A stretch of 64,000 bases of DNA, from NCBI GenBank assembly GCA_051874735.1, contig JBJEGD010000026.1, forward strand, positions 91,452 to 155,451, given 5' to 3'. Made by a program: the position numbers and the translations under genes. Of the stretch, positions 26,887 through 42,286 are shown piece after piece (the first letter of the stretch is position 1; each line of letters begins with the position of its first letter). Below the pieces are notes generated by a model that saw nothing but the letters and a program-made list of their open reading frames with translations, was not told the origin of the DNA and did no database searches. The DNA is from Candidatus Bruticola sp. (lineage in GTDB: Bacteria > Vulcanimicrobiota > Xenobia > Xenobiales > Xenobiaceae).

Positions 26887-29800
26887 ATGAGGAATGCACT
26901 CGGACATGTCTTGTCAGCAGCAGTGCTTGTAGGTAGTTTTGGGGCTTCAGTTCCTGCCTTTGCAGATAGTCCATCCGGAAATGCTGCGGTCAATACTGCT
27001 GAGCCTTTACCGGCTGCAGTAAATATGGGATTCAGCTTGGAAGCCGATTCTGCGGCTGCTCCCTACGTACATGGTTCTCAGACATCCTCTTTAACTAGTC
27101 AGACTGACAGTTGCGAGTACGTTCAGCCGCATATAATTCAGTTGGTAGCGACTGATAAAGGAGACACTGAGCTGGTTGATTCTGCGGCGATTGCTAGCGG
27201 TGCGGCAAACAGTAGCTGTTCGACTAGTGAACTTAGCACTTCAGAGAAAGATGCTACAGTTTCAACGTCTTCGGCTGTTTCTGCAGATGAGAGCAAAACT
27301 ATAAAAACAAAAACTAAGAGCTCAACTTCCGAACTAAAAAAAAGTAAAGCTAGGCTAAATAAGAGCAGAGCTGCGCGGCGTAAGAATAAAGTTAATTCTA
27401 CCGCCTTGGGAAAGCATTCTAGCCCTGAAAAGGTTGAATCTGCTGTTGCTAATTCTGATAATGGTGCGGTGGCAATAGATAGCAGCGAACCCATAAAAAG
27501 TAAGACTGAGTTTTCCGCTGAACTGTCAGATAAAACGGATCATGTTCAGACTTCCTCCAGCAGTGAACCTGCTGTCGAGGCTAAAGCCGCTTCTTCTGTT
27601 GAGCAAGAGTCTGTGCCAGTATCTACGTACTCCGCCAGCAAAAACAACGGTGATAACGTTTCTTCCGCTCTTGAAGAGAATAGCGCTGCTGCAGAACAAA
27701 AAGTTGCTCCTGCCGCCGATGAAACAAAAAGCCAGGTGGCAGATGAGGGTACGAAAAAGGCTGCAGCTTCGATCTCTCCTATTTTTAGCGGTACGGTTGA
27801 GGCTATAACTGATTCATCTTTGCGTATTTTCGGTATAGGTGCCAATGGTGAACCGCTTAGCCTCGATTTTATTGTCGATGCTAATAGTCAGATGGCTGAG
27901 GGGATAAAAATAGGCGACAGTTTATCTGTTTATTATGAAGTTTCTGAAAGCGGTGGTTTCAGAGTAACTTCGGCTAGGTATCTATCAGGTGAAGCTCCCA
28001 AGAATGTTTTCCCCGGAGATATCCCTTCTGAACTGCTCGACAATAATGATGTAACTGCAAAAGACGAGACTGATACTACCAACGAAGCGGATATACCTAA
28101 GGTCGTCAGTATTGAGGTTGAGGGCAATAAAACCGTTTCTTCAGAGGAAATACTGCAGATTATTTCCACCCGTATCGGTGACCCTTTGTTAGAACCGCGT
28201 ATCCGCCGCGATATGCAGGCTATCTACGACAGTGGATATTACACTGATGTACGTTTAGATACACGCTACACTTCAGATGGCGTCCGTGTGATCTTCCGGG
28301 TTTTGGAAAATCCTGTAGTTGATGAAATAGCTATCGAGGGTAATAGCGTAGTCCCTAGCGAAAAGCTTCGCTCTCTTATGCAACTTGAAACGGGTAAAGT
28401 GCTCAATACTCGTACTTTGCAAAATGATCTACAATCAATCAACAAATATTACAACGAAGATTTAGGCTATACTATTAGTCCTTCCCACGTTACCAAACTC
28501 GATTTTAATAGCGGTAAACTTACGTTTACCTTAGTTGATGGCATTGTAGTTAAAGAAGTTAAGGTTGAGGGGGTTACCGTTTTCCCTCAAGACCAGATCG
28601 CTTCTATGATCACGCTCAAGCCGGGCGATCTGTTTAATCGTAATACTCTGCGCGATGATACAGAAAAAATTTCTGCTCTCTACGATGAAAAACAGTACAT
28701 ATTAGATACTATTAAACCTTCGGTTGATGTCGAAACTGGTGTAGTTACGGTCAGTGTTGTTGAAGCCGTACTTCAGGAAATTAAGCTGGCTTGGACTGGC
28801 ACTAGTGCTACTAAGCACCGTACCAAAGACGACACTGTGCTGCGCAATATCCGTACTAAGCCTGGCGAGGTGATGCGTCGCGATCGCATACAAAAAGATT
28901 TGGAACGTCTTAATAACTTAGGTCTTTTCAAAAAAGTAGAGCCTGAGGTCGAGCCGGGATCTGCGCCAGGTCAAGCCGTTTTAGTTTTAAATATTGAAGA
29001 ACAGAAAACTGGTTTAGCTACGGTCGGTGTCGGTTATGCTGGAGGCGGATCGGGAGCTGTTCGCCCTGGTATAACTGGAGCGATTTCTTATTCTGAGCGC
29101 AACTTATTCGGAGAAGGTAAGCAGTTTTCCATAAACTTGCAGCGAGGTGCTCAGATCGGTGCGTATAGTATTTCTTATTACGATCCAGCCATTAACTCTG
29201 CTCAAGATTCTATTGGCGTATCTGCTTACTATAACAGCGTAGACGACTTGGAACAGCAGGTGACCGGAGCTGATTATGGCACTTACGCTTATTACGATCA
29301 GGAAGTGTACGGCGCCACTGTTACTTACGGCCATCCTTTCTCCGATGACCTTCGCGGTTTTGTCACTTTGCGTCATGAAACTATAAATTTAACTATGTCT
29401 GGTAAATCTCTGTATGTACCAGTTGGCTTGGGTAAAGGTGATTTGAACGCTATTGGTTTGTCTACTTTATATGACACTCGCGATGACGTCTTCAGCCCTC
29501 ACAAAGGTAGTTATGCTAATGTGGCCCTTACTTTTGCTGGTTTTGGGGGAGACTATAGTTACAATAAATTTGTTGTAGAAGGACGCCACTATGTGCCCTT
29601 AACTAAGCGATCTACTTTGGCTTTGCGCGGTATGTACGGAACTGTGGGCAATGGGGCTCCCGCGTCTGAATATTTTTATGCTGGCGGTACTGACACTTTG
29701 CGTGGCTATCAAGATAACTCAATGTTCGGAAACAAAGTTGTCCTTCTGAATGCTGAATACCGTTTCCCCATTGGAAATATTAAGATGCTCAGCGGCGCTG

Positions 29801-29979
29801 TGTTTGTTGACGCCGGCAATGCCTGGATCTCCGGCTACAAGTCGAGTGAACTGTATACCGATGCTGGTGTTGGTCTGCGCATAGTATTTCCTAACCTCGG
29901 TTTGGGTGTTATTCGTATCGATTATGCTTTCGGCAAAGATGGATCCCGCTCCAGTATAGGTATAGGTCAGTCATTCTAG
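26887..29979 (+). CDS. bamA: Omp85-family outer-membrane protein assembly factor BamA. It has a roughly 380-aa Ser/Ala/Glu-rich N-terminal extension, three POTRA domains and a C-terminal beta-barrel.
   Basis: Signal peptide, then POTRA-like segments (VVSIEVEGNKTVSSEEI…) and the bacterial surface-antigen barrel ending …GIGQSF. Confidence 0.85.
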   Translation: MRNALGHVLSAAVLVGSFGASVPAFADSPSGNAAVNTAEPLPAAVNMGFSLEADSAAAPYVHGSQTSSLTSQTDSCEYVQPHIIQLVATDKGDTELVDSAAIASGAANSSCSTSELSTSEKDATVSTSSAVSADESKTIKTKTKSSTSELKKSKARLNKSRAARRKNKVNSTALGKHSSPEKVESAVANSDNGAVAIDSSEPIKSKTEFSAELSDKTDHVQTSSSSEPAVEAKAASSVEQESVPVSTYSASKNNGDNVSSALEENSAAAEQKVAPAADETKSQVADEGTKKAAASISPIFSGTVEAITDSSLRIFGIGANGEPLSLDFIVDANSQMAEGIKIGDSLSVYYEVSESGGFRVTSARYLSGEAPKNVFPGDIPSELLDNNDVTAKDETDTTNEADIPKVVSIEVEGNKTVSSEEILQIISTRIGDPLLEPRIRRDMQAIYDSGYYTDVRLDTRYTSDGVRVIFRVLENPVVDEIAIEGNSVVPSEKLRSLMQLETGKVLNTRTLQNDLQSINKYYNEDLGYTISPSHVTKLDFNSGKLTFTLVDGIVVKEVKVEGVTVFPQDQIASMITLKPGDLFNRNTLRDDTEKISALYDEKQYILDTIKPSVDVETGVVTVSVVEAVLQEIKLAWTGTSATKHRTKDDTVLRNIRTKPGEVMRRDRIQKDLERLNNLGLFKKVEPEVEPGSAPGQAVLVLNIEEQKTGLATVGVGYAGGGSGAVRPGITGAISYSERNLFGEGKQFSINLQRGAQIGAYSISYYDPAINSAQDSIGVSAYYNSVDDLEQQVTGADYGTYAYYDQEVYGATVTYGHPFSDDLRGFVTLRHETINLTMSGKSLYVPVGLGKGDLNAIGLSTLYDTRDDVFSPHKGSYANVALTFAGFGGDYSYNKFVVEGRHYVPLTKRSTLALRGMYGTVGNGAPASEYFYAGGTDTLRGYQDNSMFGNKVVLLNAEYRFPIGNIKMLSGAVFVDAGNAWISGYKSSELYTDAGVGLRIVFPNLGLGVIRIDYAFGKDGSRSSIGIGQSF

Positions 29980-30175: not shown

Positions 30176-31171
30176 ATGTCTGAAGTCAATTTGAGTAAAT
30201 CTGCTGACAACACTGCAGATGAAGCTGTTAGTGAGTCAGCTACTCCTTCTGGCGGAAACAAGAAAATTGTTGGCGTAGTTGTTGCTGTAGCTGTTTTAAT
30301 AATTATCGGTATTGGAACTTGGATGTTCCTCAGTCCTAGCGGTATGATGTCTTCTCCTGCTAAAAAAGTAGGCTGTATAGACGCTTCAGCTATTTATGCT
30401 CTCGATGAGTTTAAAAACGCTGAAAAGCAGATCGCTGATTTTGCTGAAGCTAAAAACAAAGAATTTGAAAAAGCTGTCAGTGAAAAAAATGGAAAAGAAG
30501 GTTCTGAGACTGAGCTCCAGCTGCTTTATAACAAGCTTCAAGGTGAAGTTGAGGTTAACCGTAACAAAATTATTCTTCCTTTGAATAATCGTGTCTCTGC
30601 AGCTATCGCTTCCGTATCTGCTGGAAAAGGGCTTAATGTAGTCCTGGATAAGCGCGTAGTCGTATGTGGAGTTCCCGATATCACTGAAGATGTAAAAAAA
30701 CTTTTTCAACAAAAAGGCGAGCTGAAAGTTCCTTCTGAGGAAGATACTAGCGATTCTCCGGTGGCTTATTTCGATCAGGGAATAGTTCGCAAATTGAAAG
30801 TGTTCGGTGAAGTTGATATCCGCTTGAGTCAAGCCCGCGCTGACATGATGCGTGAGTATGAGAAAAAAGCTCCCAGTCTTTCAGCTTCAGAGCGTGAGGC
30901 CCTGCAGCGTGAGATGTCCGCTCGTTTTGAGGCTATTAGTCAGCAACAGTATGCTCCTCTCTATCAGAAGGTCAATAATTCTGTAAATAAAGTTGCCAAA
31001 GATTTAGGCATTTCGCTGGTACTGAACAAACAGACTGTGATGTACGGCGGGCGCAATATTACTGATGAAGTTATTGATACTTTTAATGCTAGTCTGAACA
31101 CAGATTCATCTTCTGCTGAAGCTGCAGACAGCAAAGCTGCAGACTCTAAGAATACTGAAGCTGCTAAGTAA
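30176..31171 (+). CDS. Skp/OmpH-like periplasmic chaperone, membrane-anchored, with two tandem OmpH-like halves.
   Basis: N-terminal transmembrane segment. Both halves end with a …VLDK/VLNK…DITE/ITDEVI… Skp-like tail. Strong Shine-Dalgarno AAGGAGG. Confidence 0.6.
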   Translation: MSEVNLSKSADNTADEAVSESATPSGGNKKIVGVVVAVAVLIIIGIGTWMFLSPSGMMSSPAKKVGCIDASAIYALDEFKNAEKQIADFAEAKNKEFEKAVSEKNGKEGSETELQLLYNKLQGEVEVNRNKIILPLNNRVSAAIASVSAGKGLNVVLDKRVVVCGVPDITEDVKKLFQQKGELKVPSEEDTSDSPVAYFDQGIVRKLKVFGEVDIRLSQARADMMREYEKKAPSLSASEREALQREMSARFEAISQQQYAPLYQKVNNSVNKVAKDLGISLVLNKQTVMYGGRNITDEVIDTFNASLNTDSSSAEAADSKAADSKNTEAAK

Positions 31172-31184
31172 TTGAGGTGTTTTT

Positions 31185-32624
31185 ATGCAGTTTTTTTCTG
31201 TCCCTAAATTCAAAAGTACAGGCGTATGGCTGGGGGTCGGCAGCATTCTAGTCGGCGCCGCTGTGGCTGTTCAAGTAGGCTTAGCTGAGGTTGCCTGTGC
31301 TGAAGGGACTGAGCCGAAAAAATCTGCTGCTCTTGATAAGGCTGATGATAAGTTCACTGAGTTAGCTGTAGTTGACTTCGATAAGCTGTTGAAAGATCGT
31401 CCCGATTATGAGCGCATCAATCAACTCGATGAACAGATTCGTTTACTGCAACAGGAACTAGATTTTTTGCCTTTAGCTGACCACAGGCGTAAAGTAGATT
31501 CTGGACGTAAACGTATGGAACGCGAGGTTGAAAAGGCTCGCAATGAACTTCAAGCTGAGTCTGAGCGTATTGGACGGGAATTGAAAAATTTTCGCAATGC
31601 ACTTTCTTCTCAGCTTGAACGGGAAAGTAAAGCTCTCAATGAACATTACCAAAATGTTTTACGTCAGCGTATTGCCGCTCTGACTCCCAAAGCTCAGCCG
31701 CAGGTTCCTGAAGATGTTCGCAAGCGTATGGATAGTTTCCTTAGCGATTTGGCTGGAGTGCGTCAGCAGCGACTCTCTGCTAAGCGTTTAGAACTTGAGC
31801 GCCTTATGCAGAATAATTTGGAAAGTGCCAGAGCTTCCATGGATGAGCGCTTAGCAGCCTACGACAATTCTCTTATGGAAGAGAATCAAGCGCAGCGCGT
31901 TAATCTTCAGCTTCAGTTGCAAACGGCAGCTAATGCTGAAGAAGAGTCGTCCATTCAAGATAAGCTGAGTGCTTTGAGTGATGAAGAAACGGCTAAAAAA
32001 GCGGCCAAACGCGATGAACTTAGTGCTGAGTATCAAGCGCTTGAAGCTTCAGAGAGAGCTAATGTTAACTCAAAAATGAAAGCTTTTGAAGATTCTTTAG
32101 ATAAGGAAACTTCTGCTAAAGCGGCTGCTGAACGGGAACGTCTCTTAAAGACGGTGTCAGTTCCTTCTCCCCAGGCTAACAAAGCTGATATTGAGGCCCA
32201 GATCGAAAAGATTAAGGCGACTATCAACGCTGAAATGGAAGCGAAGAAGGCTTCCATGACGGCGGCCATGCAGCAAAAGGCTGAGGAAGCCCAGCGCAAT
32301 ATGGAAAAAAAGCAGGCTGAACTAGAAAAGCGTCTCATGGCCACTCAGAAGCAGCTTGAAGCGATGGTTAAAAATTCCCAAAATGATGTCAGCGATGAAA
32401 CTCGCAAAAAGATGGATGACATTAAGGCCAAGATAGAAGATCTGCAGAAACAGCGCACTGAATTGCACGATTCCATGGCGGCTGATCTGCGCAAGGTTAT
32501 CAGTAAGATAGCTGCAGAGCAGGAAGGGCAGCCTTCTGTAATAGGAACTTATGTAATGAATATTGACTGTTTGGATCTTACCGACAAGACTATGATCGCT
32601 TTGGAGAAAGAGGACCAGCATTAG
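31185..32624 (+). CDS. Giant coiled-coil Skp/OmpH-like protein (479 aa) with a signal peptide.
   Basis: About 400 aa of heptad-rich E/K/Q/R sequence. It ends in a Skp-like tail, VIGTYVMNIDCLDLTDKTMIAL. Confidence 0.45.
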   Translation: MQFFSVPKFKSTGVWLGVGSILVGAAVAVQVGLAEVACAEGTEPKKSAALDKADDKFTELAVVDFDKLLKDRPDYERINQLDEQIRLLQQELDFLPLADHRRKVDSGRKRMEREVEKARNELQAESERIGRELKNFRNALSSQLERESKALNEHYQNVLRQRIAALTPKAQPQVPEDVRKRMDSFLSDLAGVRQQRLSAKRLELERLMQNNLESARASMDERLAAYDNSLMEENQAQRVNLQLQLQTAANAEEESSIQDKLSALSDEETAKKAAKRDELSAEYQALEASERANVNSKMKAFEDSLDKETSAKAAAERERLLKTVSVPSPQANKADIEAQIEKIKATINAEMEAKKASMTAAMQQKAEEAQRNMEKKQAELEKRLMATQKQLEAMVKNSQNDVSDETRKKMDDIKAKIEDLQKQRTELHDSMAADLRKVISKIAAEQEGQPSVIGTYVMNIDCLDLTDKTMIALEKEDQH

Positions 32625-32633
32625 GAGGTCGCA

Positions 32634-33194
32634 GTGAAGAGAATTTTTTGGTGCGGAGCAGTTTGTGCGTTACTCACTGTCGGTGTTTTGTTGGCGTCAG
32701 GATGCAATACCCAGAATCAAAAAGCTATTATTCGCACTGGAACTATAAATAGCACTGTGGTGCTTCAGCAGGATGACAAGTATCAAGAATTATCGCGTCA
32801 GTACTTCGCTGAGCGCGTTAAAGCCAGTCAAGAAGTGCAGCGAATCGTCAAAGAAAATTCTGATGCCAACGGTGTTGTGAGTGATAAGTCTATTTATGAT
32901 AAGCTTATGAAAATTCAGAACGATGTAGAATCGAAGTGGCAGAAACGCACCGCCGACTATATAGATGCTAAAATGAAGAGTATGGAAGAAGCTGCTCAGA
33001 AGGTTGCAGTGGACAGCAAGCTCGATATCATTTTAATCGATTCCGATGATGTACCTACTGTAGAGTATGGCGGCCACGACGTTACAGCTAATGTTCTAGC
33101 TGCTATGCCCGGGTTCGCTGGCAAGTCTGAAGCTGAAAGTACTAGTGCTGAGACTGCAGCTGATTCTAAGCAGCCTGTGAATAACAGCAAATAG
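32634..33194 (+). CDS. OmpH/Skp-family lipoprotein.
   Basis: Lipobox LLASGC and an OmpH-like core. GTG start after AGGAGG. Confidence 0.6.
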   Translation: MKRIFWCGAVCALLTVGVLLASGCNTQNQKAIIRTGTINSTVVLQQDDKYQELSRQYFAERVKASQEVQRIVKENSDANGVVSDKSIYDKLMKIQNDVESKWQKRTADYIDAKMKSMEEAAQKVAVDSKLDIILIDSDDVPTVEYGGHDVTANVLAAMPGFAGKSEAESTSAETAADSKQPVNNSK

Positions 33195-33214
33195 AAATGC
33201 GGAGGATAAACAGG

Positions 33215-33688
33215 TTGAAGCATTCAAAGTTTATTAACTGTTTGATTTTAACGGCTGTAGGCGCCGCTCTGCTGCTGTCAGGGGGAGGATGCGCTAAGCG
33301 TTCACTTAAAGTAGGGGTGGTTAATACTGAGAGAATTATCAGGGAAAATCCCAAGTACATGGAATTGAATGTGGTTTTGTCTGATGAGCGGAACAAGTTG
33401 TTCTCGCAAATTCCCAGTAATGTCAACAGCATGTCTGGAGCACAAAAGAAAGCTTTGCAGGAAAAATTAGCTAAAGAGGCTGCTGAGCGTTCCAGTAAAT
33501 TTGACAAGCTTTACAATGAAAGCATGAAAAGCCTGCGTGAAGATATAAAAAAACAGGCTTCAGAAGTTGCTAAAGATAAAAATATCGACTTAGTGGTAGT
33601 TAATACCATAAATTATCCAGTAGTGCTTTATACCAGCGGCGATAATGTCACTTTAGATATTCTTCTCAAAATGGACGGAGCAAAATAA
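33215..33688 (+). CDS. OmpH/Skp-family (lipo)protein.
   Basis: TTG start 9 nt after GGAGG, preferred to the track ATG at 33197. Signal sequence ending LLSGGGC. OmpH-like tail DLVVVNTINYPVVLYTSGDNVTLDILL. Confidence 0.55.
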   Translation: MKHSKFINCLILTAVGAALLLSGGGCAKRSLKVGVVNTERIIRENPKYMELNVVLSDERNKLFSQIPSNVNSMSGAQKKALQEKLAKEAAERSSKFDKLYNESMKSLREDIKKQASEVAKDKNIDLVVVNTINYPVVLYTSGDNVTLDILLKMDGAK

Positions 33689-34613: not shown

Positions 34614-36458
34614 ATGAGAAAATATAATTTATGGGCCTTAATTTTGGCTTTTGTAGTCTTTTATTCCGCTGCTCTGTCATCTGCCTGGGCTGCTGATGTA
34701 ATGCTGGGAGGCCAGGTTATCTTTCGTATAAATGATGAGGATCAAGCAAAAAAAATATCCCAAAAAATTGAAGCTATGTTGCAGAGGGGGGCTTCTTCGT
34801 CTTCAATTAAAGTCGTACGTAAAGATATTGCTGTAGCCTCGGAGGGGCAAGATAAGCAAGATAAAGATGAAGGTAGCAAGGGAGGGGCTAAAGCGAAAAA
34901 ATCTGTTTATAAAATATTTTGGGGAAGTGAATTAGTCATTGAAGTGAATGACGAAATTGCCAAGCAGAATGCTTCTTCTCCAGAAGCTTTAGCTAATTTA
35001 TGGGCCTCCAATATGCGCAATGTCGTCGATATTGGCCTGTTGAATGTTGATGTTGCTAGAGTCGTTTTACCTATAGAGGCTGATAAGGTTATTTACGCTT
35101 CTGGTTTGGCAACCGGTCCTTTGAGTGCTGAAGAGACTTCAGGTATCGTTGATATTGATATCGATCAGGAAAACGGCCTTATTAAGATAAAAGGGCGCAG
35201 GGTTGGAAAGTCGTCTATCGTTATTAGCAAAGGGGTTGCCTCCGTTTCCGTTTTTGTGCAGGTGAAAGATTGGGCCGGCAAACTTCCTCAGACGGTTAAT
35301 GTTGAAGTAACTGGCAATCCTGCACAGATTGATGACGTTTCCCAGGCGGTTATGCTTTCCATAGCGGCTAATACTTTCGTTCAGCCAGGCTGCAGTGTTT
35401 ATGTTGATGATTCCAACTTTAAACCGATTCCGGTGAGTAAAGGCGACAGTATGCGCTTAAGCGTGCCTGTGGGTATAAATGCTTCGGAAGATTATTTTGC
35501 GCTTCGCGGCAATGTTAATGTTGTAGTTAGCAATATAGAAGCTCCTGTAGTTGAGCAGAATCTGCTTCTAGTCAGCAATCGGCCGGAGCGTGTCAGCACA
35601 GATGGAGTATTAATGAAGTATAACTTCAAGAGACGTGAGCCCAGTCGTCTTATGTTCTCCCATCTTAATGCTTCCGAAAAGAATCGTTATTTGTGGATAA
35701 ATTTAGCTAATTTAAATGACGAACCGATAAAGATTGTTATCAGTCGCACTTCTGCTGGACCTGAGCGCAGCGAAATTTATGTCGGCCAAACGGCTGCCAA
35801 GCGCTTTTTAGAAAATTTGGCCAGTCGTTCCGGCTATATCATTACTCTTCCGCCCAATTCTGCTTTAGAGCTCTGTTCTTATGTGATGCGTCCTGAAGCT
35901 TTGGTAAGTGGATTTATAAATTTCCAAATTTTGGAAGGTACTAGCGCGACCGTTGAAGTGCGCAGTTCATTAAATCCTAATGCTAACGATGGACGTCCTC
36001 TGCCAGAAATAGGGGCCCCTTTTAATCCTTTCAAAATACATCCTCACGGAGTTTTTGCTCAGCCTTATTTTGAAAATGAAGGTGAATTTGTTATAGGTGG
36101 CAGTCCTTTAACTTTTCGTTATGGTGAGAGTCCTTGGCTGATTGATTTTGAAACTGGGCTGCCCAACACTGGCAATTTCGGGGTTTTGTATAAATCTTTG
36201 GTAGAATTAAAAAATCCTACTAAGCGTACAAAAACTGTGGGACTTTACTTTACGCCTTTGTCCGGCCCTGGCGGTGCTAACTTCCTGATAGGCAATTCTG
36301 TTTATCAGGCAGTTTTCCGCAAAAAAGGTGATGAAGTACTTGTAGCTAAAATCGAACTCTCGCCAGAGTCTAGCAGTATAATTGAAATTGTCACTTTACC
36401 TGAGGCGACTTCCTGTTATCCTGCCCAGTATGAATTGCGTGAACTGGACGGGCGCTGA
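34614..36458 (+). CDS. Large secreted protein of unknown function (614 aa) embedded in the lipid A cluster.
   Basis: Clear signal peptide MRKYNLWALILAFVVFYSAALSSAWA. No recognisable domain. Confidence 0.6.
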   Translation: MRKYNLWALILAFVVFYSAALSSAWAADVMLGGQVIFRINDEDQAKKISQKIEAMLQRGASSSSIKVVRKDIAVASEGQDKQDKDEGSKGGAKAKKSVYKIFWGSELVIEVNDEIAKQNASSPEALANLWASNMRNVVDIGLLNVDVARVVLPIEADKVIYASGLATGPLSAEETSGIVDIDIDQENGLIKIKGRRVGKSSIVISKGVASVSVFVQVKDWAGKLPQTVNVEVTGNPAQIDDVSQAVMLSIAANTFVQPGCSVYVDDSNFKPIPVSKGDSMRLSVPVGINASEDYFALRGNVNVVVSNIEAPVVEQNLLLVSNRPERVSTDGVLMKYNFKRREPSRLMFSHLNASEKNRYLWINLANLNDEPIKIVISRTSAGPERSEIYVGQTAAKRFLENLASRSGYIITLPPNSALELCSYVMRPEALVSGFINFQILEGTSATVEVRSSLNPNANDGRPLPEIGAPFNPFKIHPHGVFAQPYFENEGEFVIGGSPLTFRYGESPWLIDFETGLPNTGNFGVLYKSLVELKNPTKRTKTVGLYFTPLSGPGGANFLIGNSVYQAVFRKKGDEVLVAKIELSPESSSIIEIVTLPEATSCYPAQYELRELDGR

Positions 36459-39838: not shown

Positions 39839-42286
39839 TTGACTGAAAATAGTCAGCAACAATCATCTGCTTATCCTCAGTTGACGGTTGCGATAATCGC
39901 CATAGAGCCTTCTGCCGATCTTCATGGAAGCAATTTGGCTAGGGCTCTTTTGGCGATTAATCCGCATCTAAAACTGGTCGGCGTAGGCGGATCGCATATG
40001 GCCGCGTCGGGAGTCAGTCTGTGGTTAAGGACCACAGACATGGCAGTTATTGGTCCCGGCGGGGCTATTGCTCGTTTGCCTAAATATATATGTTACTATT
40101 TGTACGTGCGCAGGCATTTGCTTAAGGAACATCCTCACCTCAGCATTTTAATAGACTGCCCCGCCGTTAACATGCGTTATGCTGGTCTTTTGACTCGCTA
40201 TGGCTATCATTCTGTTTATTACTTTCCCCCTTCTGCCTGGACAACCAGCGAAGTGCGTCTTAGACAGATTTTTAGCCGCACAGATAGGGTAATTTGTACC
40301 TTCTTGAGCAATGCCGAAAATTATCGCCGTCTGGGTATGGATGTAGATTTCTTCGGCCATCCTCTTATCGATATGCCCGAGTTAGGAATTTCTGCAGAAG
40401 AAGCTAAAAACAAGTTGGGGCTGGTAGGCGAAAATATTTTGGCTTTACTTCCGGGCAGTCGTGCTTCAGAAATAAAGTATCTATTGCCGATTTTTTTAGA
40501 AATAGTTGCTAAGTTGCATCAAGAAATAGAAAATTTGCAGGTACTTGTACCTTGTGCAACTCAGGCGCTTCGCAGGCAAATAGTTGCCTATATGGGGGAT
40601 AGGTTCCCTTATGTGCGTGTTTTAAATGGGCAGTCTCGTTTAGCCCTTTTAGCTTGTCGAGCAGCGTTGATGAGCTCTGGCACAGCTAGCCTGGAAGCTG
40701 CGATATTAGGCGCCCCAATGGTTCTGTCTTATAAACTTTGTCCCTTCGATGCTGTTATAGGTAAGTTCCTGATTTGGAGTGGTTTATTAAAAATTGAGCA
40801 TATCGGGTTGCCCAGTTTGGTCGCTGGACATCGCATTGTTCCAGAGTTTGTTCAAGATGAAGTTTCACCTGAAAATATTATCCCTCATTTGCGCAATTTT
40901 ATGCGAGATACTCCTGAGCGGTGCCAAATAAAACAAGATCTTTTAGATATGAGGAAGTCCATGGGCGCTCCTGGAGTAATTACCAAGATAGCCTCTTCTT
41001 TATATAGTCGCATTGAGAGCAGTGCTGCTGAAAGGATGGCTGAACCTTTCGACATTGTTATAACATCTAATTCTCCTGGAGAGGTGTCCACGTGGGTGCG
41101 ACGCACTGTTGCTCAGTTGGAGGTTAAAAACAAAGGGCAGTTTAGAGTTATAGTAGCGTTAGTTCCATGTCCTTATGCTTCCGGAGCTGAAGCTGAAGTC
41201 GCCGCTTCTCTGCCAGGCGTTTCCATTGTTCTGACGCCTAGTCAGACTGTGCGTTTAATGTGCGGCATGTTCAACGATTTTGAGCTGCGTAAAAAGGGAG
41301 TAGTAGTATTTTTAGGCGGTGATCTTATTCACGCTAAAATTTTGGCTTGGCGTTTAAAATATCGCTCTATAGCCTATGCAGCTAGATACAACAGGCTAAT
41401 CTACTATTTTGATAAAGTCGCTGCTTCAGATATTTCACTGGCCTCTGAATTATTAGAAGCTGGAGTTAATGAAGTTGTTAATATAGGTAATTTAAGTATT
41501 GATGGGGTTATTTCTGAAGTTGATAGGGAAGCAGCTGATAAAGTATCCCGTAGAACTGGCTTGAAGATTGGCATTTTCCCAGGATCGCGTTTTCTGCATA
41601 CTAAGATCGCTCTAGGAGTGTTTTTGCGTGTAGCTGCTCTAATAAAAACGCGTCACCCTGAGGTTGAATTTGTCCTTTCTGTATCGCCTTTTCTTTCCCC
41701 AGCTCGGCTGGAATCGGCACTTTGTAATCCTTTTAGTTTGGGGCTTCCGGTAGCTAAGGGTAAATTGCTCAGTGCTGATCGCATTGCAGTTGAGTGTATG
41801 TATGAAGATGAACAGGCTGCAGGACGCAGTTTTGAAGTTGAAGTTTTGTGGGGCCATCCTTATCAAGCTATTGCAGAAATAGATATGGCACTTACCATTC
41901 CGGGAACGAATACTGGAGAGTTGGGGTGTTGCGGCAAACCTATGGTAGTAGGACTTTCTGCTGATGCTTCCCTGCCCAGAGGAGGTTTGGGCGGCTTATT
42001 TGAAAGGATGCCAGTTTTATCAAAACTTAAGAGTTATTTGCGCTTGCGTTCTTATGCGCGTCACGGTTTCGCTGCGATCCCTAACCGTATTGCTTCTAGA
42101 GCTATCGTTCCTGAAGTTTTAGTAAAAAAAGATACGTCTGTGCTGGCCCAGCCTATTTTAGAGTGGATTGAAACTCCTGAGAAGTACGCCCGTGTTTCCC
42201 AAGATTTAAAAGACACTATGAGAACGACAGAGGGAGCGGGCAAGCGCATGGCTGAGTTGATCCTGGGTTTGGTTGATTCTAAATAA
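39839..42286 (+). CDS. lpxB: Lipid-A-disaccharide synthase fused in tandem to a second GT19 (LpxB-like) domain (815 aa).
   Basis: Residues 1 to about 390 carry the LpxB motifs LLPGSR and SSGTASLEAAILGAPMVLSY. Residues about 400–815 repeat them as IFPGSR and IPGTNTGELGCCGKPMVVGL. Confidence 0.8.
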   Translation: MTENSQQQSSAYPQLTVAIIAIEPSADLHGSNLARALLAINPHLKLVGVGGSHMAASGVSLWLRTTDMAVIGPGGAIARLPKYICYYLYVRRHLLKEHPHLSILIDCPAVNMRYAGLLTRYGYHSVYYFPPSAWTTSEVRLRQIFSRTDRVICTFLSNAENYRRLGMDVDFFGHPLIDMPELGISAEEAKNKLGLVGENILALLPGSRASEIKYLLPIFLEIVAKLHQEIENLQVLVPCATQALRRQIVAYMGDRFPYVRVLNGQSRLALLACRAALMSSGTASLEAAILGAPMVLSYKLCPFDAVIGKFLIWSGLLKIEHIGLPSLVAGHRIVPEFVQDEVSPENIIPHLRNFMRDTPERCQIKQDLLDMRKSMGAPGVITKIASSLYSRIESSAAERMAEPFDIVITSNSPGEVSTWVRRTVAQLEVKNKGQFRVIVALVPCPYASGAEAEVAASLPGVSIVLTPSQTVRLMCGMFNDFELRKKGVVVFLGGDLIHAKILAWRLKYRSIAYAARYNRLIYYFDKVAASDISLASELLEAGVNEVVNIGNLSIDGVISEVDREAADKVSRRTGLKIGIFPGSRFLHTKIALGVFLRVAALIKTRHPEVEFVLSVSPFLSPARLESALCNPFSLGLPVAKGKLLSADRIAVECMYEDEQAAGRSFEVEVLWGHPYQAIAEIDMALTIPGTNTGELGCCGKPMVVGLSADASLPRGGLGGLFERMPVLSKLKSYLRLRSYARHGFAAIPNRIASRAIVPEVLVKKDTSVLAQPILEWIETPEKYARVSQDLKDTMRTTEGAGKRMAELILGLVDSK

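Follow-up and report, generated by a model that had tools for sequence, protein, structure and literature searches.

Four Skp/OmpH-family genes, including a putative long-arm member, between bamA and an lpxD-like gene of Candidatus Bruticola

In order to follow up a first-pass annotation of a 64,000-nucleotide stretch of genomic DNA (the window; contig JBJEGD010000026.1, positions 91,452 to 155,451) from Candidatus Bruticola, a member of the class Xenobia of the Vulcanimicrobiota (Eremiobacterota), the four consecutive OmpH-type genes of the window were analyzed computationally. The genes are numbered g1 to g4 from 5' to 3' and all lie on the forward strand; the g2 product matches a hypothetical protein of a Candidatus Bruticola sp. 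metagenome-assembled genome at 100% identity. The results favor an explanation in which the four are Skp/OmpH-family paralogues, g2 is long-armed, and g1 and g2 form a membrane-anchored assembly of two plus one OmpH units; taken as a whole, this explanation is given somewhat better than an even chance of being correct. Its homologues place g2 in a long-arm OmpH subfamily that occurs in the bamA-skp-lpxD clusters of diderm Terrabacteria; where the tentacle of an OmpH protein usually comprises ~70-90 residues, that of g2 comprises ~370 in structural models, an arm about five times as long as is typical. The open reading frames (ORFs) of all four genes were found where the first-pass annotation had placed them, between bamA and the lpxD-like gene, and the order bamA-g1-g2-g3-g4-lpxD was kept in 14 of 14 related Xenobia loci, at identities down to 43-46%. 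A location between bamA and lpxD, which is a trait of the OmpH/Skp family, was seen in other phyla as well.

Sequence comparisons support g2 as a genuine OmpH-family protein, although it misses the gathering score of the Pfam OmpH model (PF03938; 32.4 bits). Weak matches to this model were obtained for 16 of 19 g2 orthologues (best E 1.7e-5), and an exhaustive profile search with g2 recovered 214 relatives at E ≤1e-3, including 58 at E ≤1e-30. Two full-length homologues exceed the gathering score, namely P0089 (505 aa, 45.8 bits), annotated by NCBI as 'OmpH family outer membrane protein', and P0053 (486 aa, 32.8 bits). End-joined constructs, in which residues 56-118 were fused to residues 396-479 with the middle removed, were examined for six orthologues. 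OmpH was the top Pfam family for all six (20-33 bits, E 1e-7 to 6e-4), with matches covering positions ~1-136 of the 141 in the model, while control constructs of equal length taken from the internal coil scored at most 13.6 bits and matched the coil part of the OmpH model only. The margin over the coil controls suggests that both ends of g2 hold OmpH-specific signal; the end-joined construct is artificial, and supports family placement rather than a curated assignment. In profile-profile alignments (hhalign), the strand-1 region of g2 (VVDF..LL..xPDY) matched g4 at E 1.3e-4 when 19 sequences were used and at E 2.6e-7 (93% probability) when 64 were used, and the C-terminal motif of g2 aligned with the end of g1 unit 1 (E 0.028). 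When the end-joined g2 alignments were compared with g1, g3, and g4 by hhalign, the best value was 46% probability (E 2e-4) and controls were little lower, and the Pfam results for the constructs and their controls were therefore relied on instead. On its own g2 matched nothing in NCBIfam, showed no similarity to g1, g3, or g4 in pairwise BLASTP, and, searched as a profile against PDB sequences, returned only coiled-coil noise of the apolipoprotein type. Body elements that match the two ends of the OmpH model, with a helical hairpin between them, are thus recognizable in the alignments and models of g2. The first-pass annotation had described this protein as a coiled coil ending in an OmpH-like tail; the long coil and the C-terminal element were retained, but the OmpH elements lie at both ends, with ~370 helical residues between them.

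The AlphaFold2 (AF2) model of g2 built from a 64-sequence alignment had a mean pLDDT of 86.2 and a pTM of 0.53, and an earlier 19-sequence run agrees with it. The predicted hairpin spans residues 75-445 between short beta elements, and its helices pair in antiparallel fashion (71 with 71 residues in the distal part, ~92 with 113 in the proximal part), with a regular 3-4 hydrophobic spacing along the two-helix coiled coil. The two breaks in the helices are opposed to each other and coincide with proline- and glycine-rich indel hot spots in 64 homologues (18-91% identity to g2). The hairpin of E. coli Skp comprises roughly 90 residues and its tentacle measures about 6.5 nm, and the earlier claim that the arms of g2 would be far longer agrees with the helical secondary structure predicted by AF2. 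With a rise of 1.5 Å per residue, residues 75-246 (the outgoing strand) would extend for ~25 nm if straight, or ~13-14 nm with a fold at the hinge; the periplasm of E. coli is about 20-30 nm wide. The different cavity size or periplasm-spanning role proposed for g2 in the first-pass annotation is kept here as a hypothesis.

Foldseek searches against the PDB with both g2 models returned generic hairpins only, none at E ≤1e-3. The top matches were hairpins of Rad50, MukB, SMC, and chemoreceptors, which, together with weak Pfam and PDB matches to Mitofilin and apolipoproteins, would speak for g2 as a coiled-coil protein of unrelated origin (SMC/Rad50-like, apolipoprotein-like, or phage-derived) that lies among skp genes by chance. 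However, all of these matches are insignificant and confined to the helical hairpin, while the OmpH-specific ends, the above-threshold homologues, and the conserved synteny argue for OmpH kinship, and such an unrelated origin is considered very improbable. The elbowed arms of SMC, MukB, and Rad50 share with g2 long antiparallel two-helix arms with breaks at matched positions. Unlike those cytoplasmic, DNA-acting proteins, g2 has no ATPase head, hinge domain, or zinc hook, and its predicted termini are strand and helix elements of about 15-35 residues, not halves of an ABC ATPase head. An SMC or phage origin was rejected, since no ATPase-head domain was detected with Pfam or NCBIfam and the matches were insignificant and restricted to the coil; the profile searches that the first-pass annotation had proposed as a check for an SMC-like or phage-tail identity thus left the OmpH kinship standing.

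Conservation was computed as the mean frequency of the top residue in a set of 53 homologues with pairwise identities below 60%. The value was highest, at 0.56, for residues 61-80, the strand-1 region of g2. Residues 201-260, which hold the distal arm and tip, gave 0.48-0.52 and were as conserved as the body, for which the C-terminal part (residues 421-466) gave about 0.44, and the hinges were least conserved (0.23-0.25). Within the C-terminal element V452, N459, D464, L465, and T466 are nearly invariant. The outgoing distal helix ends in the motif Q-x-x-[KR]-[LV]-N-L-Q-L-x-L-Q-T, after which comes an acidic turn, and this pre-tip motif recurs in the shorter long-arm forms of Negativicutes and of the Armatimonadota-like group. 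The strong conservation of the tip is more in keeping with a specific partner than with a passive spacer.

The gene directly preceding g2 was examined in the same manner. The start codon (ATG) of g1 is preceded by AAAGGAGG, and its product reaches 72.6 bits against the OmpH model in two separate stretches. With a charged N-terminus and a hydrophobic stretch ahead of these, g1 is read as a membrane-anchored tandem double OmpH protein, as it had been annotated before. A two-unit g1-like gene lies directly 5' of every giant form examined, including 14 of 14 Xenobia loci, and its two-unit architecture was confirmed by alignment in three lineages beyond these. In an Eremiobacterota metagenome-assembled genome (MAG) the order is Omp85, 286 aa, 505 aa, 144 aa, LpxD; in loci L020/21 it is 328 aa, 486 aa, 178 aa, LpxD; and in L022/23 a gene of 241 aa overlaps one of 466 aa and RNase Y follows. 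Furthermore, single-chain fusions of 638-652 aa were found in four distinct 50%-identity clusters (P0088, P0100, P0101, and P0132). They are collinear with g1 followed by g2, i.e. anchor, arm-deleted unit 1, unit 2, and giant unit, and no internal signal peptide was seen in any of the four clusters. One fusion lies directly after bamA and before RNase Y, as the fused counterpart of L022. A sequencing artifact was rejected as the source of the fusions given the four distinct clusters, their common architecture, and the lack of an internal signal peptide.

These natural three-unit chains suggest a body of three OmpH units. In the structures 1SG2 and 1U2M, three Skp subunits together build the body of a homotrimer, and from this, the 2+1 gene pair, and the three-unit single chains we infer a pseudo-trimeric, anchored Skp-like body. 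In the mechanism that we infer for the four genes, holdase and trimer functions included, g2 would be exported by its own signal peptide and would join the inner-membrane-anchored, two-unit g1 in a Skp-like body of three OmpH units (2+1). The anchored body would project two short arms and one hinged arm of ~25 nm toward the outer membrane and would hold unfolded outer-membrane proteins as they leave Sec, while the conserved tip of g2 could guide clients to BamA or the outer membrane or dock them there. As lipoproteins, g3 and g4 would serve as ordinary short-arm, Skp-like holdases at the membrane surface.

Alternatively, g2 may be a free, soluble homotrimeric 'giant Skp' with a deeper cavity for large clients (the 1030-aa BamA, large adhesins) that acts independently of g1. 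Consistent with such a protein are the signal peptide that g2 has of its own, with its A-x-A conserved, the OmpH body elements that it retains, the homotrimeric nature of canonical Skp, and the unusual length of BamA in this organism. Against it stand the strict adjacency of a g1-like two-unit gene to the giant form in every lineage examined and the fusions to a membrane-anchored two-unit protein in which an internal signal peptide is missing. A cage of hinged, 25 nm two-helix arms would also be very floppy, and g2 is acidic where client-binding Skp is basic. The free homotrimer is regarded as unlikely. The pairing, the natural fusions, and the conserved tip tilt the balance in favor of an anchored, spanning assembly over a larger free cage.

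The same membrane-anchored partner or fusion would also suit a protein that no longer acts as a chaperone but, built on an OmpH scaffold, serves in the periplasm as a ruler, spacer, or tether that sets or senses the distance between the membranes or links the BAM region to the inner membrane. The mostly rod-like two-helix coiled coil of g2 with its regular 3-4 hydrophobic spacing, a tip motif that suggests a specific docking partner, and an acidic charge that is not Skp-like point in this direction. However, the OmpH body elements are kept, g2 occupies the chaperone position of the bamA-skp-lpxD cluster, and nothing supports binding to peptidoglycan or membranes. In addition, L015 and L022/23 have the g1-like and giant pair as the only OmpH genes seen beside bamA, so the pair may need to provide Skp function there. 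A ruler or tether is considered distinctly unlikely.

Several observations weigh against the anchored 2+1 assembly of long-armed g2 with g1. The pseudo-trimer of g1 and g2 is derived entirely from gene order, fusions, and the counting of units, and the Xenobia locus holds five OmpH units when g3 and g4 are included, not three. The predicted secondary structure fits a hinge-folded arm as well as a straight one of ~25 nm. Searched alone, g2 scores only 10.9 bits (E 0.55) against the Pfam OmpH model, below the gathering score. Finally, a strongly basic mature protein is a trait of E. coli Skp, though not a strictly defining one, and the computed isoelectric point (pI) of mature g2 is 5.4.

Whether unfolded outer-membrane proteins cross the periplasm with diffusing chaperones or through trans-envelope assemblies is debated. 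If the anchored assembly of g1 and g2 exists, an anchor, exactly three OmpH units (2+1 or fused), and a periplasm-long arm with a tip conserved across phyla would make it a natural candidate for a bridge. By analogy, such a Sec-to-BAM bridge would be comparable to the lipid bridges formed by Lpt and TamB/AsmA. More tentatively, and with doubt outweighing confidence, an inner-membrane-tethered, pseudo-threefold Skp body with a ~25 nm arm bridging Sec to BAM may be a feature of diderm Terrabacteria, formed in some lineages by a single three-unit polypeptide, and Skp in this group would then not be a free homotrimer in every case. It would further follow that the Skp scaffold tolerates a five-fold extension of its arm and hetero-oligomeric or single-chain formats, which could be of use in chaperone engineering and in reading the repeated 'skp' genes of Negativicutes, Armatimonadota, and Eremiobacterota genomes. 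Should g2 merely be a longer free Skp, the finding would amount to a modest expansion of the family.

The remaining two genes, g3 and g4, are paralogous OmpH lipoproteins according to profile comparison (99.3% probability, E 1.2e-20 between the two profiles). The Pfam gathering score was reached by g4 (35.0 bits), as it was by g1, and the whole-protein score of g3 was 19.7 bits, under the gathering score; nine of nine g3 orthologues matched OmpH (best E 2.1e-6). A Gly-Cys lipobox is invariant across all orthologues of both genes, which, with the OmpH matches, bears out their earlier description as lipoprotein OmpH genes. By size and charge g4 is the most Skp-like of the paralogues, being the only basic one (computed mature pI 9.3, compared with 5.4 for g1 and 5.0 for g3; E. 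coli Skp has a pI of ~9.5), and a search of PDB sequences with its profile returned only the E. coli Skp entries 1u2m and 1sg2, weakly (E 0.17-0.19). The TTG codon at 33215 is probably the start of g4, in preference to the upstream ATG at 33197, since a GGAGG lies ~9 nt upstream of it and several orthologues (e.g. L001, L002, and L005) have an equivalent TTG or GTG start. Each of the four products thus has a predicted signal for periplasmic export, i.e. the anchor of g1, the signal peptide of g2, and the lipoboxes of g3 and g4, all assigned by eye from sequences and alignments.

Comparison with E. coli Skp (HlpA/OmpH; 1SG2, 1U2M) revealed the same order of elements in g2, i.e. signal peptide, N-terminal strand, helical hairpin, and C-terminal strands plus helix, and the same gene position between bamA and lpxD for g1 to g4. 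In contrast to E. coli Skp, g2 has a predicted hairpin of ~370 residues, two conserved hinges, and a conserved tip motif, its mature form is acidic rather than basic, and it is paired with or fused to a membrane-anchored tandem OmpH protein rather than forming a free homotrimer. The Skp of Flavobacterium johnsoniae in the extended translocon of type 9 secretion (8gl8 chain G) has an arm of normal length, and its match to g2 was no stronger than that of generic hairpins. Prefoldin/GimC (1FXK), which is cytosolic, archaeal or eukaryotic, and without detectable sequence kinship, offers an analogy for a hetero-oligomeric Skp only.

Several skp genes beside bamA are ordinary for diderm Terrabacteria and were already known; for Negativicutes and Halanaerobiales, the consulted parts of two papers describe up to three copies after bamA within the 'diderm cluster' (Antunes 2016, PMC5007114; Poppleton 2017, PMC5491611). 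The Xenobia locus resembles these clusters in its consecutive OmpH genes between bamA and lpxD; it differs in that the former, as presented in those parts, are treated as plain Skp homologues, whereas Xenobia have four genes, five units, and a 479-aa member. The same portions of both papers make no mention of an elongated skp copy, tandem two-unit proteins, or fusions. A literature search on elongated, heterotrimeric, and paralogous Skp and on the Xenobia envelope, which was not exhaustive in coverage, found no long-arm Skp. Within the reach of these searches, no earlier description appears to exist of the long-arm subfamily, of its anatomy of hinges and tip, or of the pairing and fusion of g1 and g2.

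The long-arm subfamily includes several size classes. Giant forms of 420-540 aa occur in Eremiobacterota and metagenomes, after a two-unit g1-like gene. Intermediate classes span 300-350 aa and comprise Negativicutes and an Armatimonadota-like group. Lipoproteins of ~300-315 aa, one of which was named 'Skp family chaperone' by JGI, occur in Negativicutes/Bacillota MAGs in the order bamA, 427 aa, OmpH152, long form, OmpH138, lpxD. A form of ~346 aa, in a cluster that includes an Armatimonadetes fragment, follows a 156-aa OmpH gene. Metagenomic loci L016-L018, with a gene order of the Negativicutes type, carry OmpH152, a 315-aa long form, and OmpH138, and close relatives of this long form come from Negativicutes/Bacillota MAGs. 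The 427-aa gene that follows bamA in L016 was considered as another giant form and rejected, as its product is neither helical nor coiled. This protein (L016, 2073-3356, forward strand; also present in L017) lies between bamA and the first OmpH gene and has no Pfam match; a protein named SonA has been described adjoining bamA in Acetonema (PMC13018214), to which it might correspond. Locus L010 (JAAZKF010000085.1) carries a bamA-g1-g2-g3-g4 cluster of the Xenobia type, yet is titled 'Burkholderiales bacterium'; its protein cluster also holds a Candidatus Xenobium entry, and it is probably a mis-binned or mislabelled MAG.

The coordinates of the genes and their elements are listed in Table 1. 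The gaps g1/g2, g2/g3, g3/g4, and g4/lpxD measure 13, 9, 2-20, and 0 nt, and with such spacing (0-20 nt) g1 to g4 and the lpxD-like gene are read as one operon. In a scan of 26.3-36.8 kb, promoter and terminator sites were no commoner than in shuffled sequence. The lpxD-like gene is followed 3' by genes for a 614-aa secreted protein, LpxC, FabZ, a Gfo/Idh/MocA oxidoreductase, LpxA, and a long LpxB, and farther downstream by LptC-like, LptB-like, and LptF/G genes. The LpxC, FabZ, LpxA, LpxB, and Lpt neighbors mark the locus as the outer-membrane biogenesis cluster of a diderm bacterium. A typical Gram-negative envelope is described for the only member of the phylum in culture (PMC9758169).

Table 1. 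Positions in the window of bamA, g1 to g4, the lpxD-like gene, and elements predicted within g1 and g2
Feature	Position	Strand	Evidence
bamA, 1030 aa; Omp85 barrel, POTRA repeats, ~400-aa N-terminal low-complexity extension	26887..29979	+	Pfam Omp85, POTRA; NCBIfam TIGR03303, 330.9 bits
g1, membrane-anchored tandem double-OmpH, 331 aa	30176..31171	+	Pfam OmpH in two stretches; orthologue alignment
g1 hydrophobic signal-anchor, residues ~30-52	30263..30331	+	read from sequence; kept in orthologues
g1 OmpH unit 1, residues ~62-178	30359..30709	+	alignments; arm of unit 1 deleted in fusion proteins
g1 OmpH unit 2, residues ~195-305	30758..31090	+	best Pfam stretch 221-301; aligned to P0088 at E 2e-12
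g2, long-arm OmpH-family protein, 479 aa	31185..32624	+	homologues, end-joined Pfam constructs, AF2
g2 signal peptide, residues 1-39; A-x-A before cut, A39 nearly invariant	31185..31301	+	alignment, by eye
g2 N-terminal OmpH body element; strand 60-62, short helix 65-71 (VVDF..LL..xPDY)	31362..31406	+	AF2; hhalign to g4 N-terminus
g2 outgoing proximal helix, residues 75-166	31407..31682	+	AF2, pLDDT about 90-97
g2 hinge 1, residues 167-175, Pro-rich indel hot spot	31683..31709	+	AF2 break; family P/G and indel statistics
g2 outgoing distal helix, residues 176-246, with the pre-tip motif at its end	31710..31922	+	AF2; conservation
g2 hairpin tip, residues 247-250	31923..31934	+	AF2
g2 returning distal helix, residues 251-321 (71 residues)	31935..32147	+	AF2
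g2 hinge 2, residues 322-332, opposite hinge 1	32148..32180	+	AF2 break; P/G, indel hot spot
g2 returning proximal helices, residues 333-400 and 404-445	32181..32519	+	AF2
g2 C-terminal OmpH body element; strands 451-453 and 463-464, D-L-T motif, helix 466-478	32520..32621	+	AF2; alignment to end of g1 unit 1
g3, OmpH-like lipoprotein, 186 aa, lipobox LASGC	32634..33194	+	orthologue Pfam matches; profile match to g4
g4, OmpH lipoprotein, 157 aa (TTG start) or 163 aa (ATG 33197)	33215..33688	+	Pfam OmpH
Short lpxD-like acyltransferase, 237 aa, without N-terminal PF04613	33689..34402	+	Pfam, NCBIfam; starts directly after g4 stop

Several features of the neighboring genes were also recorded. The first ~400 residues of BamA are a Ser/Ala/Glu-rich low-complexity region plus a small conserved segment before the POTRA repeats; Xenobia orthologues of BamA measure 840-1027 aa, compared with 573-662 aa for those beside long-arm OmpH genes in other lineages. 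Divergently upstream of bamA lies a gene for a 490-aa beta-propeller protein of the PQQ_2 (BamB) type (24854-26326, reverse strand); diderm Terrabacteria are, to our knowledge, generally described as lacking BamB-like lipoproteins. The lpxD-like gene matches positions 103-332 of the 345 in PRK00892, exactly at the 207-bit cut-off. This short form (237-250 aa) is common to all Xenobia loci, while the other lineages have a 344-360 aa LpxD with PF04613. The 614-aa protein downstream of it (34614-36458, forward strand) has a signal peptide and no family assignment, with a faint match to DUF3370 only. It is kept between lpxD and lpxC in every Xenobia locus (584-707 aa, by ORF-finder starts) and may be another envelope-biogenesis factor. 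The long LpxB (39839-42286, forward strand; PF02684 at residues 17-358) has a C-terminal extension of ~450 aa without a Pfam match. Finally, tandem near-identical genes on the reverse strand (23799-24071 and 24329-24616) encode small Gln-rich proteins of 90-95 aa (MSILSNLTSMFSGGGYA...KWDEYIRS).

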